A stretch of 64,000 nt of DNA from an uncultured bacterium (GTDB lineage: Bacteria > Actinomycetota > Acidimicrobiia > Spongiisociales > ZC4RG35): assembly GCA_963785075.1 (NCBI GenBank), contig CAWATW010000001.1, positions 69,598-133,597 on the forward strand, written 5' to 3'. How positions within the stretch are numbered: the first letter of the stretch is position 1; each line of letters opens with the position of its first letter. The notes beneath the pieces are model-generated. The model was not told the origin of the DNA, made no database searches, and saw only the letters and a program-made list of their open reading frames with translations. Made by a program: the position numbers and the translations under genes. This document shows, one piece after another, positions 35,647 to 40,218 of the stretch.

Positions 35647-37359
35647 TCAGCCCTCCGCGTTGATCAGCGAGCCCCAGAGGTACGAGTAGTAGTCGAACGA
35701 ACCGGTGTTACCGGTGTGGAGCGGGCTTGCCGCATCCAAACCGGCCGTCCAAGTGGCGATCACATCGGTTGCGTCGAAATCCGTACCGTCATGGAACGTG
35801 ATGCCCGTCTTGAGGGTGCACGTCCAAAGCGTGCCGTCCTCGTTGGGATCGCAGGACTCGGCGAGCTTCGGAACGGGCTGGCCGTCGAGGTCGTACCCGT
35901 ACAAGCCCTCCATGACCTGCTCGCATGCCGACAACGACTCGCCGTCGCTCTCGTCGGAGCAGTACATCGAGATCGGCTCGGCGTTCTGGACGAACACGAG
36001 CGTGTCCTTGCCCGGATCCATGGTGGCGAACTGCGGTGCGCCGAACGGCGGGGACTGAGCGTTGCCGAGTGCCGTGCTGGCAGCGTCGGCAGCGGCGCCC
36101 CACGCGATCGGAACCATGGGCACGTGCTGCTTGATGAGGTTGTTGGCCTCGGCGTACAGCGGTGCGGACTCCGCCGGGTCGGCGATGGCGCCGGCCTCGG
36201 CGAGGAGCGCCGCAATGTCCTCATAGGTGTCACCGAACTGAACGTTGCCACCGAAGTGGAAGTCCAGGAAGTTCGTCACGTGCGGATAGTCGGCACCCCA
36301 CCCGAGCAGGTGGATCCCATCGAGCTGACCGGACGTGGAGGCGTCGATGAACGCACCCGATTCCTGCACCTCGATCTCGACGTTGATGCCCAGGTTCTGC
36401 GCCAGCTGTGACTGGATCTCCTGAGCCACGACCTGCGGCTCCGGCAGGTAGACCCGGAACACGTCACGCAGGTACAGCGTGGTGTCGAATCCGTCTGGGA
36501 ACCCGGCCTCCGCCAGCAGCGCCTTGCCCGCCTCCGGATCGAAGTCGTACCAGGCGTCTCCCTCACACCCGTTCTCGATGATGCACGGTGTGAAGTGGGT
36601 GGCGACCTCGCGACCCGTCCGGATAGAACGTGTCGACGATCCTCTGTCGATCGATCCCCAGCGCGATCGCCTGCCGCACACGCTCGTCGTCGAACGGAGC
36701 GAAGGTGTTCGTGAACCCCATGTAGAAGATGTTCGGGTTCAGGTCGGGCAGAACCGCGAGGTCCTGGTTGGCTTCGATCGTCGCGTAGTCGCTGGCGGCG
36801 AGGGCGGTGATGTAGTCGGCGTTCCCCGACTCCAACTCCAGGATGCGCGAAGTGCTCTCTTCCGCCCACCGGAACACCAGCGTGTCGAACGCCGGCTGAT
36901 CGCCCCAGTAGTTCTCGTTGCGGCTGAAGATGATCTCACTACCTCGACTCCAGGAATCCAGCATGAACGGGCCGGTTCCGACTGGGTTGTCCAATGGCGA
37001 TCCGCTGGTTGCCTCGAGATGCTCGGATGGCTGGATGCCGAATGGCACGAAAGCCATCTTCGCCAAGAACGCAGGGTCCGGGGAGCACAGTGCGAACTCG
37101 ACGGTCTGGGCGTCGACAGCCGTGATCGAGCTGATCTTGCCGCCGTAGTCGCAACCGCCGGCGTCGAGGGCCGTCGTTTCGAAATCGCCGGATGGCTCGG
37201 CCGCGGTTGTCGTCGTTTCCTCGTCGACCATTGCGGTCGTTTCCGTCGTCGGCTCGTCGCCCGTGGTGGTGTCACTCACGTCGTCGGTGGTTCCGCCGCA
37301 GGCGGCGGCCACCAGGGCCAGCAAGGCCACGAGCGCCATGATGCGTAGTCGCTTCATCG
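35647..37359 (-). pseudogene. ABC transporter substrate-binding lipoprotein, family 5 (DppA/OppA-like), single frameshift
   Basis: Lipobox LVAAACGG after MKRLRIMALVALL (GGGAGGA before the ATG). The N-terminal 265 aa are in ORF 36563..37705 and the C-terminal part in ORF 35647..36681. The junction is at the ccggacggg run near 36630. Confidence 0.55.
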
Positions 37360-37442: not shown

Positions 37443-37892
37443 TCAAGCTTCGGTCGGTTCGAGCTCGGGCCGCAGCAGATGGAGCAGCGCGGTGCCATAC
37501 GCGTCGGCGGCGGTCGACGCCTCCACACCGAGCACCTGTTGGCCGATCCGTACGTCACAACGAAAGCCGGTGTCGGTGGGAACCAGGCCGGCGAACCGGT
37601 CGCCGATCCTTGCTCGCAGCTGTGACTCCGAGGGCAGCCACACCACGTCCTGGGTGAGGATGTAGTCGAGTGACCATTCGACGGCGCCGTTGAACGTGAT
37701 CGCACCGATGCCGTCGCCGAGCGTGGTGAGGTCGATCGAGAGATCGGCGATCACGAACACGTGATCGTCGAGGTTGCGATCGGGAATGTGAAACCGGTCC
37801 CCGAGGGCCGGGCGCCAGTACAGGCCGGCGGAGCGCAGCTGCTTGGCGAGCCCCACTCGAACCGTCTCGCGTGCGGGATCATCAATGATCAT
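37443..37892 (-). CDS. hypothetical protein (149 aa), third gene of RRM-IF1 operon
   Basis: ATG at 37892 overlaps the IF-1-like stop (ATGA). No recognisable domain. The track ORF 37443..38150 over-extends. Confidence 0.5.
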   Translation of the reverse strand: MIIDDPARETVRVGLAKQLRSAGLYWRPALGDRFHIPDRNLDDHVFVIADLSIDLTTLGDGIGAITFNGAVEWSLDYILTQDVVWLPSESQLRARIGDRFAGLVPTDTGFRCDVRIGQQVLGVEASTAADAYGTALLHLLRPELEPTEA

Positions 37893-38113
37893 CGGTAGCG
37901 CCAGACGATCCGGCCTCGGGTGGGGTCGTAGGTGGACACCTCGATGTCCACCTCGTCTCCCGGGAGAATCCGAATCATGCGGCCCCGCCGCATCTTGCCA
38001 CTCGGTCGGGCCGTGATCTCCAGCCCGCCTTCGACCTCGACGAGGAAGGTCGCGCTGCGAAGCACTTTCTTGACCGTGCCTCGCATGCGGATGTATTCCT
38101 CCTCGTCCGCCAT
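37889..38113 (-). CDS. infA: translation initiation factor IF-1-like S1/OB-fold protein (divergent infA paralog?)
   Basis: 74 aa, MADEEEYIRMRGTVKKVLRSATFLVEVEGGLEITARPSGKMRRGRMIRILPGDEVDIEVSTYDPTRGRIVWRYR, which aligns to IF-1 (ISGKMRKNYIRILTGDKV...YDLSKGRIVFR). Non-canonical genomic context. Confidence 0.8.
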   Translation of the reverse strand: MADEEEYIRMRGTVKKVLRSATFLVEVEGGLEITARPSGKMRRGRMIRILPGDEVDIEVSTYDPTRGRIVWRYR

Positions 38114-38418
38114 CAGTATCCCCGGTTGTGATCCCGACCGCGCCCGCCATCGCGTCTGCCGCCGCCGGGGCGCTCGGCTCTGGGTCTCGCCTCGTTCACG
38201 GTGAGCGGACGTCCGTCGGCGTCGGAACCGTCCAACTCGGATATGGCCTTGCGGGCCTGGGCGTCGTCGGGCATGACCACAAATCCGAATCCGCGGGACC
38301 GTCCGGTCTCGCGATCGGTGATGATCGATGCCGAATCGACTTCTCCGTGAGGGCGGAACAACGCCGCCAAATCCTCGTCGGAGAATCGGAATGGGAGGTT
38401 TCCCACGTAGATGTTCAT
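38113..38418 (-). CDS. RNA-recognition-motif (RRM) RNA-binding protein with Gly/Arg-rich tail
   Basis: MNIYVGNLPF (RNP2) and RGFGFVVM (RNP1), followed by a C-terminal RGG-rich tail. AGGAG lies before the ATG. The stop overlaps the infA-like start. Confidence 0.8.
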   Translation of the reverse strand: MNIYVGNLPFRFSDEDLAALFRPHGEVDSASIITDRETGRSRGFGFVVMPDDAQARKAISELDGSDADGRPLTVNEARPRAERPGGGRRDGGRGRDHNRGY

Positions 38419-38679
38419 GCCAGCTCCTGCGTGTGACCGCCGGAACGACGGTCTTCCACCATCGTGCACAGGCACATGCCACATCGGCGAGCCGTTCGAA
38501 CCACGTACCTGGCAGCACCCGAGGGGTGCTCCACGGGGACAATACAAGACGGTTTCCCCGGTCACCACTGCGTTCGGCACTCTGGCTTGTGGACGGTTCG
38601 TGGGACCTCGCCGATCCGACGAGCCGCCGGACGCGATGAAGGCCCGAGTGCCTCGCGCGGGTCGGTAGCCTGACACGGC

Positions 38680-40017
38680 ATGAGCGAGTTTTCAGATCGG
38701 TTCACGTGGGGTGTGGCGACCTCGGCCTACCAGATCGAAGGCGGGATCGAGGATGGGAAAGGCGAGTCCATCTGGGATCGGTTCGCCGCGGAGGGGCACA
38801 TGTCCGATACCGGTGCGGTTGCCTGCGATCACTACCACCGCTTTCCGGAGGACGTCGAACTCATGCGACGCCTCGGTGTGGACGCCTATCGCTTCTCGCT
38901 GGCGTGGACCCGGATCCTGCCCGAAGGCGTGGGGTCTGTGAACCAACAGGGGTTGGATTTCTACAGCCGACTGGTCGACGAGTTGCTCGAAGCCGGTATC
39001 ACACCGTGGGCGACGCTCTACCACTGGGACCTTCCCCAGGCGCTCCAGGATCGTGGCGGGTGGCCGGCGAGATCCACTGTCGATGCGTTCGTGGAGTACA
39101 CCGCCGTCGTGATGGATGCACTGGGCGACAGGGTGGATCAATGGATCACTCACAACGAGCCGTGGGTGGCCTCGATGCTCGGCTATCGCGAAGGAGTGTT
39201 TGCACCCGGGATCAGCAGCTGGCCGGATGCACTGGCGACGGCGCATCACCTGCTCCTGTCGCACGGCCAGGCCGTCGAAGTGATCCGCAACGAGGTCCCT
39301 GGGGCTACGGTCGGGATCGCCCTGGATTGCCGTCCGGCGCAGCCGGCATCGAACGACCCTGCCGATGTCGCCGCCCATCGCCACTTCGACGGCTTCAGGA
39401 ATCGTTGGTTCTTCGATCCTGTCTTCGGGATGGGGTATCCGGAGGACGTGTTCGAGACCTACGAGGTGCTTGGGCGCTTCGACTCCTCGGTGGTCCGCGA
39501 CGGCGACATGGATGTGATCGCCCGACCCATCGATTTCGTCGGGATCAACTACTACACGAGCCTCGTCATCGCTGCCGGCGGCGAAGAGTCCGAGGACCCC
39601 GGAGTGCCTGCCGGCGCGCCGGCGCAACCGGGCCGCACGGAGATGGGATGGGCGACGACCCCCGATGCTTTCAGGGACTATCTGGTCCACATCCACGAGC
39701 GTTACGAACCGGCATCGATCGTGATCACGGAGAACGGGGCGAGCTACTCCACTGGCCCTGACGCCGACGGGATCGTCGACGATGCGGACCGGATCGCCTA
39801 CCTCGAATCCCACGTGGTCGCCGTGGAGGAGGCGATCGCCGCCGGGGCACCTGTCGAGGGGTACTTCGTCTGGAGCCTTCTCGACAATCTCGAGTGGACG
39901 TCCGGATACTCGCAACGTTTTGGTCTCGTGTGGGTGGACCACGACACACAGCAGCGCATCCCAAAGGCGTCGTACGACTGGTACCACGACTTCATCGCCG
40001 GCACCCGCACCACCTGA
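38680..40017 (+). CDS. glycoside hydrolase family 1 beta-glucosidase
   Basis: GH1 N-terminal motif [15 protein letters not shown], acid/base TENEP-type region ITHNEPW, and nucleophile ITENG. Confidence 0.9.
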
Positions 40018-40218
40018 TCAGGACCGTCGCCGTTCGTTTCCGCGTTTGTAGTTGCCGGTGAACCGCGCCATGACATCCTGTGGATCGAGGCGTTCGATCT
40101 TCTCGAGGAACGTCACGGCCCGATGCCCGCGCAGACGTGCAGCCATTCGTCCGTTGTGGGTGATGATCACCGTCCCATCGGGGCGCCGCTGGAACTCGAA
40201 TCCCGAGGGGCTGCCCAT
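40018..40218 (-). CDS. small hypothetical protein (66 aa) downstream of tdh
   Basis: ORF MGSPSGFEFQRRPDGTVIITHNGRMAARLRGHRAVTFLEKIERLDPQDV... starts 5 nt after the tdh stop. Not low-complexity RG junk. Confidence 0.4.
   Translation of the reverse strand: MGSPSGFEFQRRPDGTVIITHNGRMAARLRGHRAVTFLEKIERLDPQDVMARFTGNYKRGNERRRS

Follow-up and report, generated by a model that had tools for sequence, protein, structure and literature searches.

Initiation factor IF-1 is among the most conserved and usually single-copy proteins of bacteria. How, then, should one read a locus in which an IF-1 gene lies away from the ribosomal-protein genes and overlaps, at its start, the gene of an RNA-binding protein and, at its end, a gene of an unnamed family? 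Such a locus is found in the 64-kb stretch of DNA analysed here (as a whole, ‘the window’), which derives from an uncultured actinobacterium of the class Acidimicrobiia, and in which positions 38418-37443 of the minus strand are occupied by three consecutive open reading frames (ORFs): rbp (encoding a protein with a single RNA recognition motif, RRM), an IF-1 family gene and a gene for a 149-aa protein. An earlier interpretation made from the letters of the window (the sequence-only reading) had proposed that these three genes form a dedicated translation/RNA-chaperone module behind a long leader. By comparison with related loci we find that the conserved unit is the RRM-IF-1 pair, within a single Acidimicrobiia clade of IF-1, that the triad is a local elaboration of it, and that the pair in the window is preceded by a leader whose first hairpin is conserved by covariation.

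Three overlapping genes

The genes and their junctions (read directly from the sequence) are arranged in the following order:
38113..38418, minus strand: rbp, single-RRM RNA-binding protein, 101 aa
38111..38115, minus strand: TGATG junction, stop of rbp and start of the IF-1 gene, with a 1-nt overlap at 38113
37889..38113, minus strand: IF-1 family gene, 74 aa, of a fast-evolving RRM-linked Acidimicrobiia clade
37889..37892, minus strand: ATGA junction, stop of the IF-1 gene and start of the 149-aa gene, with a 4-nt overlap
37443..37892, minus strand: 149-aa gene, of an unnamed actinobacterial family

The sequence-only reading had placed a three-gene operon here, and three consecutive minus-strand ORFs coupled by overlaps do lie at this place; of the two ATGA junctions that it had described, the one between the IF-1 and 149-aa genes (37892-37889) stands, whereas the one between the RRM and IF-1 genes is a TGATG. 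For codon differences and intergenic comparisons we set the window against its closest relative found (L012, a contig of a metagenome-assembled genome, MAG), which is 91% identical, colinear over 20 kb and possesses the same ATGA junction. The two loci differ by 18 synonymous and 6 non-synonymous codons in rbp, by 10 and 2 in the IF-1 gene, and by 34 and 5 in the 149-aa gene (36 of whose 42 nucleotide differences fall at third codon positions). Since the differences lie mainly at third codon positions in all three genes, this comparison identifies all three ORFs as real coding genes under purifying selection. We propose that the three are also carried on a single transcript and so make up one transcription unit.

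The first gene product is, by profile cut-offs and RNP motifs, a bacterial single-RRM protein. It matches Pfam RRM_1 (E=2e-21, 75.9 bits, cut-off 20.7) and NCBIfam NF058537 ‘RNA-binding regulator’ (115.4 bits, cut-off 100), its translation reads IYVGNL at RNP2 and RGFGFVVM at RNP1, and it ends in an Arg/Gly-rich C-terminal tail; over 83 aa its RRM domain shares 52% identity with an Rbp1-type sequence of Synechocystis.

The second product matches PF01176 (E=3e-17) and the TIGR00008 infA model (78.5 bits, cut-off 61.15, with positions 2-69 of the 69-position profile covered). Its residues 1-72 align end-to-end with Thermus IF-1 (5lmn_W, E=7.5e-18; also 1hr0_W), from which it differs in length solely by one extra residue after GKMR (GKMR-R-GRM). 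The motifs that contact the 30S subunit (GKMR, IRILPGD, GRIV) are kept, as is YD, and the residues of a loop are altered (LPNATFRV to LRSATFLV).

The gene identities given by the sequence-only reading thus hold for the first two ORFs. The product of the third, to which it had given no identity, has no sequence match in Pfam, NCBIfam or PDB, and no Pfam or NCBIfam domain was found in 34 members of its family either. A C-terminal alpha-beta3-alpha unit is confidently predicted in its AlphaFold model (predicted local distance difference test, pLDDT, 77), which has no significant fold match in PDB or BFVD; a double-stranded RNA-binding domain, whose fold is alpha-beta-beta-beta-alpha, was considered as a candidate for this C-terminal half. 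The gene is nevertheless genuine and not spurious, as attested by 181 homologues (up to 96% identity) together with the synonymous excess given above, and the family is larger than this first search indicated (493 representatives at 50% clustering). Some of its homologues (e.g. P0007, P0078 and P0359) are named ‘pilus assembly protein CpaE’ in GenBank/RefSeq. At 149 aa the protein is far shorter than CpaE, and the ParA/MinD-type P-loop ATPase domain was not detected by profile or fold searches; because no ATPase or other domain is detectable in the family, the label is probably a propagated misnomer.

The RRM-IF-1 pair and the 149-aa gene among relatives

Related loci were gathered by homology searches and two collection scans, and comprise 160 dereplicated loci (80 kept of 381 hits in GTDB genomes, and 80 kept from Joint Genome Institute metagenomes), for which the only organisms named are Acidimicrobiia, an unclassified Actinomycetota/Actinomycetes MAG or an unclassified ‘bacterium’. 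Their IF-1 sequences split into a slow-evolving clade 1 and a clade 2 that is monophyletic and long-branched in the neighbour-joining tree. Clade 1 takes two forms: a canonical-length IF-1 (AHVSGKMRMRYIRILPGD) encoded in the order adk-map-infA-(rpmJ)-rpsM-rpsK-rpsD-rpoA-rplQ, and ‘type C’, a stand-alone gene in variable neighbourhoods whose product has a one-residue insertion (ARAAGKMRRGRYIRILPGD). Clade 2, to which the window gene belongs, has the same insertion as type C, and the Acidimicrobiia copies in the ribosomal-protein cluster are without it. TIGR00008 scores amount to 104-111 bits for these cluster copies, 95 for type C and 73-87 for clade 2 (the IF-1 of M. tuberculosis scores 127).

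With tblastn neither rpmJ nor rpsM nor rpsK was found in the window, or in the flanks of clade-2 and type-C loci (up to 10 kb; 3 kb for metagenome loci), and the same queries recovered each of these genes in the canonical loci L092-L095; in other Acidimicrobiia a canonical infA is retained at its place between map and rpsM. The sequence-only reading's divergent IF-1 outside the ribosomal-protein context is borne out by the low TIGR00008 score and by this lack of ribosomal-protein genes, and by tree and neighbourhood the window gene is a member of the fast-evolving, Acidimicrobiia-only clade 2, which lies outside the ribosomal-protein cluster.

The insertion itself (GKMR-R-GR, IF-1 residues 40-46, at about 37976-37996 of the window) is common to type C and all RRM-linked Acidimicrobiia IF-1s (L055-L091), and is possibly a lineage signature adjoining the rRNA-contact loop. 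A further IF-1-like protein (85 aa, 42% identical; L011, 1563-1820) is encoded on a contig of 2.5 kb within a series of small genes that overlap and are unannotated, an arrangement that looks phage-like.

An RRM gene lies directly upstream of IF-1 in 35 of 87 assessable clade-2 loci, as against 0 of 59 in clade 1 (Fisher p=7.5e-10). At the RRM-IF-1 junctions stop and start overlap by 1 nt in 17 of 38 cases and by 4 nt in 13 (together 30/38), and two loci, L009 and L010, retain the association in the opposite order, with IF-1 preceding the RRM gene. As the linkage is scattered throughout the clade-2 part of the tree, this distribution suggests an old association of the two genes, with later losses.

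The 149-aa gene behaves differently. Within the sub-lineage of the window (type A, with IF-1 at least 80% identical) it follows IF-1 in 21 of 33 loci, as compared to 0 of 40 other clade-2 loci and 0 of 47 clade-1 loci, and the full triad is present in 6 of 29 assessable loci. Since the third gene is limited to one sub-lineage and the triad to these few loci, the pair is, on present comparisons, the conserved unit and the triad a local elaboration; the comparisons do not bear out the dedicated three-gene module as the sequence-only reading had put it, and show instead an RRM-IF-1 pair widespread in one Acidimicrobiia IF-1 clade.

We may go further and suppose that the pair alone is functional, and that the 149-aa gene, together with the peptide ABC transporter that comes after it, is a neighbour by descent; we hold this to be only a little short of evenly balanced. 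It is in keeping with the restriction to the at-least-80%-identity sub-lineage, with the variable distance at which the 149-aa match begins after the IF-1 stop (-4 nt for the window and for L012, but between 22 and about 1800 nt in other relatives), which admits inserted genes such as a metallophosphoesterase in L002, and with the family standing alone in Mangrovactinospora (Actinomycetes), where the homologue has genes for a RIO1 kinase and a Usp protein beside it. It is opposed by the persistence of the adjacency where the 149-aa proteins are only 56-62% identical and where both flanks have changed (L003 as compared to L001), the two genes being kept together although other neighbours differ between type-A loci, and by the ATGA overlap of the window and L012. 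The link of the 149-aa gene to IF-1 rests, as judged from gene order, on conserved adjacency within one sub-lineage.

An intervening gene of about 240-320 aa between the IF-1 and 149-aa genes is present in L002 (where it is the metallophosphoesterase), L018-L021 and L038-L039. Convergent or overlapping ORFs of 135 aa (L006-L008) and 145 aa (L009) proved to be unrelated to the 149-aa family.

Two independent MAGs with a triad hold a second RRM-IF-1 operon each (JBHJOH01, L013 and L069; CAWGTX01, L015 and L071), from which it follows that the family has been duplicated in close relatives of the window. The second operon of each MAG encodes an IF-1 of 65% identity, and in each of them one operon has the 149-aa gene and the other is without it.

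Descent of the IF-1 gene

Whatever the standing of its third gene, the RRM-IF-1 pair could be part of something quite ordinary. The window gene resembles canonical infA (adk-map-infA-rpmJ-rpsM) in its TIGR00008 score above the cut-off, its full-length alignment and its 30S-contact motifs, and is unlike it in lying outside the ribosomal-protein cluster, in its insertion, altered loop and faster evolution, in being coupled to an RRM gene and in belonging to a type that occurs in two copies in some MAGs. It might be the relocated sole or main infA of its lineage, which has acquired the insertion and come to lie behind an RRM gene, in which case the locus would be an ordinary infA operon and no stress module; we regard this as a serious contender, albeit a less probable one than not.

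Several observations speak for such a relocation. The gene exceeds the infA equivalog threshold with GKMR, IRILPGD, YD and GRIV all kept, and its insertion is common to type C, a slow-evolving stand-alone IF-1 that is also found outside the ribosomal-protein cluster, which suggests that it descends from an orthologue that had been relocated. Moreover, none of 78 MAGs (80 GTDB loci) has both a type-C and a clade-2 gene, and on a 3.48-Mb chromosome bearing a triad no second IF-1 appears among the best 120 of at least 8000 type-C/canonical profile matches. Against this, only copies with the insertion could match the patterns used to scan the genomes, to which a canonical-length copy is invisible; clade 2 evolves much faster (73-87 as compared to 95-111 bits, and long branches), which is unusual for a sole essential factor; and two MAGs possess two clade-2 operons each. 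When the GenBank accessions of canonical IF-1 proteins were compared with those of RRM-linked ones for close neighbours, none matched, and a literature search on Acidimicrobiia infA returned nothing relevant.

That the insertion is shared with type C, and that the two types do not co-occur, thus favours the lineage's own infA; the faster evolution and the duplicated operons argue for a paralogue released from housekeeping duty. We consider the two roughly even.

The leader and a possible role of the pair

A gap of 261 nt (38419-38679) separates rbp from the divergently transcribed gene of a GH1 beta-glucosidase (38680-40017). The sequence-only reading had taken the whole of it for a leader of about 260 nt; the gap and a conserved leader are indeed there, yet the region is a divergent intergenic one, of which the proximal 135 nt alone are conserved (96% identical to L012, as compared to 91-95% in the coding regions and about 47% in the distal 126 nt) and the untranslated region (UTR) would take up only about 113 nt. 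The proximal part can be aligned across six type-A loci, and the following elements are recognized in it:
38419..38553, minus strand: conserved proximal intergenic part, 135 nt, with promoter box and a putative 5′ UTR of about 113 nt
38539..38544, minus strand: TATTGT, a -10-like TAnnnT box preceded by TG, assigned from conservation
38514..38530, minus strand: P1 hairpin, AGCACCC CUC GGGUGCU, at the predicted mRNA 5′ end
38499..38509, minus strand: conserved box GGTACGTGGTT, directly 3′ of P1; GGTWCGTGCTC in relatives
38435..38453, minus strand: P3 hairpin, GACCGUC GUUCC GGCGGUC, shortly before the Shine-Dalgarno sequence
38424..38428, minus strand: AGGAG Shine-Dalgarno sequence of rbp, with GGAGC invariant in ten leaders

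The base before this GGAGC is A in eight of the ten leaders (the window included) and C in two (alignment A6). A scan for sigma-70 promoter and terminator consensus found nothing at the upstream region, and because of this we infer the transcription start from the conserved elements, placing it about 7 nt after the TAnnnT box, which would give the 5′ UTR of about 113 nt. The same layout is common to 17 RRM leaders of different lineages, in which TAnnnT is followed, after a gap of 6-14 nt, by a hairpin of variable sequence and then by GGTWCGTGCTC.

The hairpin that the sequence-only reading had reported in the leader, which reads AGCACCC-CUC-GGGUGCU at 38530-38514, is not only present but kept by covariation in relatives. 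All 14 leaders folded have a hairpin of different sequence at the P1 position, and 13 of these have negative folding z-scores (mean -1.2, only modestly better than shuffles); in a covariance-model alignment all seven base pairs are changed on both sides, and the covariation score (0.39, as compared to 0.20 for shuffles) was reached by none of 500 shuffles and is best at slide 0. P1 is, by covariation, structurally conserved. P3 is part of the RNAalifold consensus of the six type-A leaders and has undergone stem-preserving changes, though in few sequences.

The box is specific to this context: among 22 matches of the 11-mer in 1.6 Mb of related loci (both strands) 13 lie 74-120 nt upstream of an RRM start, and of the remaining nine the eight inspected look intragenic. 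Furthermore, when a covariance model of P1 plus box (R1) was run over 1.28 Mb, each of its 18 hits (E<=1) lay upstream of an RRM gene. Searched with Rfam 15 (which includes the cspA thermoregulator), the window and seven related loci gave no match at gathering score, and only chance-level ones in E-value mode. We put the leader forward as a candidate new cis-regulatory RNA.

That the element acts instead as DNA, i.e. as a promoter with a palindromic operator for a repressor, is improbable: the dyad does lie at a typical operator position (about 10-25 bp downstream of the -10-like box) and its folding energies are only modestly better than those of shuffles, but from one lineage to another the stem is wholly altered in sequence and still pairs, which fits RNA and not a sequence-specific operator, and the adjacent box is conserved in sequence yet non-palindromic.

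The E. coli cspA-type leaders likewise place a long structured 5′ UTR, with a box near its 5′ end, before a small RNA-chaperone gene; unlike them, the leader described here has no sequence or Rfam similarity to that type, and its gene product is an RRM protein and not a cold-shock domain protein. In the two MAGs with paired operons (JBHJOH01 and CAWGTX01) the leaders of the two operons differ, and a hairpin-plus-GTGCTYC layout is common to them.

Of the genes around the operon, the SBP_bac_5 solute-binding gene just downstream of the triad (35647-37357, minus strand) is split over two frames near 36608-36672, its Pfam match breaking at profile position 241; the gene is intact in L001 (575 aa), and the split in the window reflects either a pseudogene made by frameshift or a fault of the assembly. 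On the other side, a 66-aa ORF without Pfam match (40018-40218, minus strand) lies between the GH1 gene and that of a Zn-dependent dehydrogenase, in an interval where L001 holds a thioredoxin/TPR gene.

Returning to the RRM-IF-1 pair as the conserved unit, the reading that we put forward is that of a co-expressed RNA-chaperone and initiation-factor pair under the control of its leader, to which we give nearly as much credence as doubt. On this reading the structured leader of about 113 nt (5′-terminal hairpin, box, second hairpin and AGGAG) would be followed by rbp, the IF-1 gene and the 149-aa gene, and the stop/start overlap would fix the ratio of the RRM protein to the OB-fold IF-1. The two proteins may then act jointly on mRNA 5′ regions and on the 30S subunit, keeping translation-initiation regions unfolded and aiding the formation of the start complex, chiefly when RNA structure is over-stabilised by cold or another stress. 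The conserved leader would subject the operon to post-transcriptional and possibly autoregulatory control, as for RRM proteins elsewhere, and the 149-aa protein would be a lineage-specific third component.

The suggested role in cold or stress is drawn by analogy with better-studied proteins. IF1 of E. coli acts as an RNA chaperone and in antitermination, and in B. subtilis it can complement a cspB cspC mutant (PMC3017892). Among RRM proteins, Synechocystis Rbp1 is required for cold adaptability (PMC9333190) and the cyanobacterial Rbp3 associates with ribosomes (PMC12232666), so that cold adaptation and ribosome links are both on record for the Rbp1/Rbp3 proteins, the Rbp1-type sequence compared above being the one with about 52% identity to the RRM domain of the window. 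The Bacteroides RRM-1 proteins are cold-induced, required for growth in the cold and autoregulated (PMC13370968); these proteins, RbpA/B/C, are stand-alone bacterial RRM proteins that share their NCBIfam/Pfam type with the rbp product, and the transcriptional and post-transcriptional autoregulation of RRM-1 matches the idea of a regulatory leader. In contrast to the present case, the paper on them (PMC13370968) mentions no IF-1; their leader sequences are unrelated, and the function of the protein in the window is putative.

A precedent by analogy for an RRM gene combined with a small translation component may be seen in the cold-regulated rbp-rpsU cluster of cyanobacteria (Sato 1994, as cited in PMC12232666). 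As far as that citation describes it, the cluster resembles the window in that a small single-RRM protein with a Gly/Arg tail is encoded immediately upstream of a small translation component, and is unlike it in that the partner here is IF-1 and not S21, the host belongs to the Actinomycetota and the genes overlap (TGATG). The sequence-only reading had not recognised the locus as a described system, and in full-text literature searches we likewise found no description of an RRM-IF-1 operon, just as no Rfam family matched its leader. What the locus presents is known kinds of parts in an arrangement that we did not find described, and not something categorically new.

Several points weigh against the coordinated pair that we propose. 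Thirty of 38 type-A loci have no adjoining RRM gene, and as this is the case for most of them, this type of IF-1 can work without one beside it. The 149-aa family occurs alone elsewhere, other Actinomycetota included, and has no recognisable fold. Both the transcription start and the single transcript are themselves inferred, and the energies of single hairpins are individually unremarkable in such GC-rich sequence. A pairing of the box with the Shine-Dalgarno region, considered as a route of control, gave no gain over shuffles in duplex energy, and cognate pairs did not surpass non-cognate ones (p=0.12). Finally, if the gene is the sole infA of its genome, a stress-specific role becomes less likely.

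A bolder version, which we hold to be unlikely, is that the RRM-linked clade is a second, specialised initiation factor beside a canonical IF-1 of the ribosomal-protein cluster, and that in the cold or under stress it acts with the co-translated RRM protein (and, in the lineage of the window, the 149-aa protein) to reprogramme initiation on some of the structured mRNAs; if true, this would be an alternative-initiation-factor system of bacteria, with a new leader RNA as its control. The finding would gain interest if a canonical infA coexists with the RRM-IF-1 operon, and would come down to an infA operon of unusual build, in a single lineage of actinobacteria, if the gene is the sole infA. The operon lies in uncultured organisms, which limits immediate testing.

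What gives the locus its wider meaning is that, in a protein otherwise so conserved, a whole IF-1 clade has moved out of the ribosomal-protein cluster and is marked by fast evolution, duplications and translational coupling to an RRM protein. Bacterial RRM proteins are only now coming to be recognised as cold-shock or global RNA chaperones, and the RRM-IF-1 operon hints at where their link to the ribosome may lie; it offers a concrete, testable case in which a eukaryote-like RRM protein may be partnered, physically or functionally, with the machinery of translation initiation.

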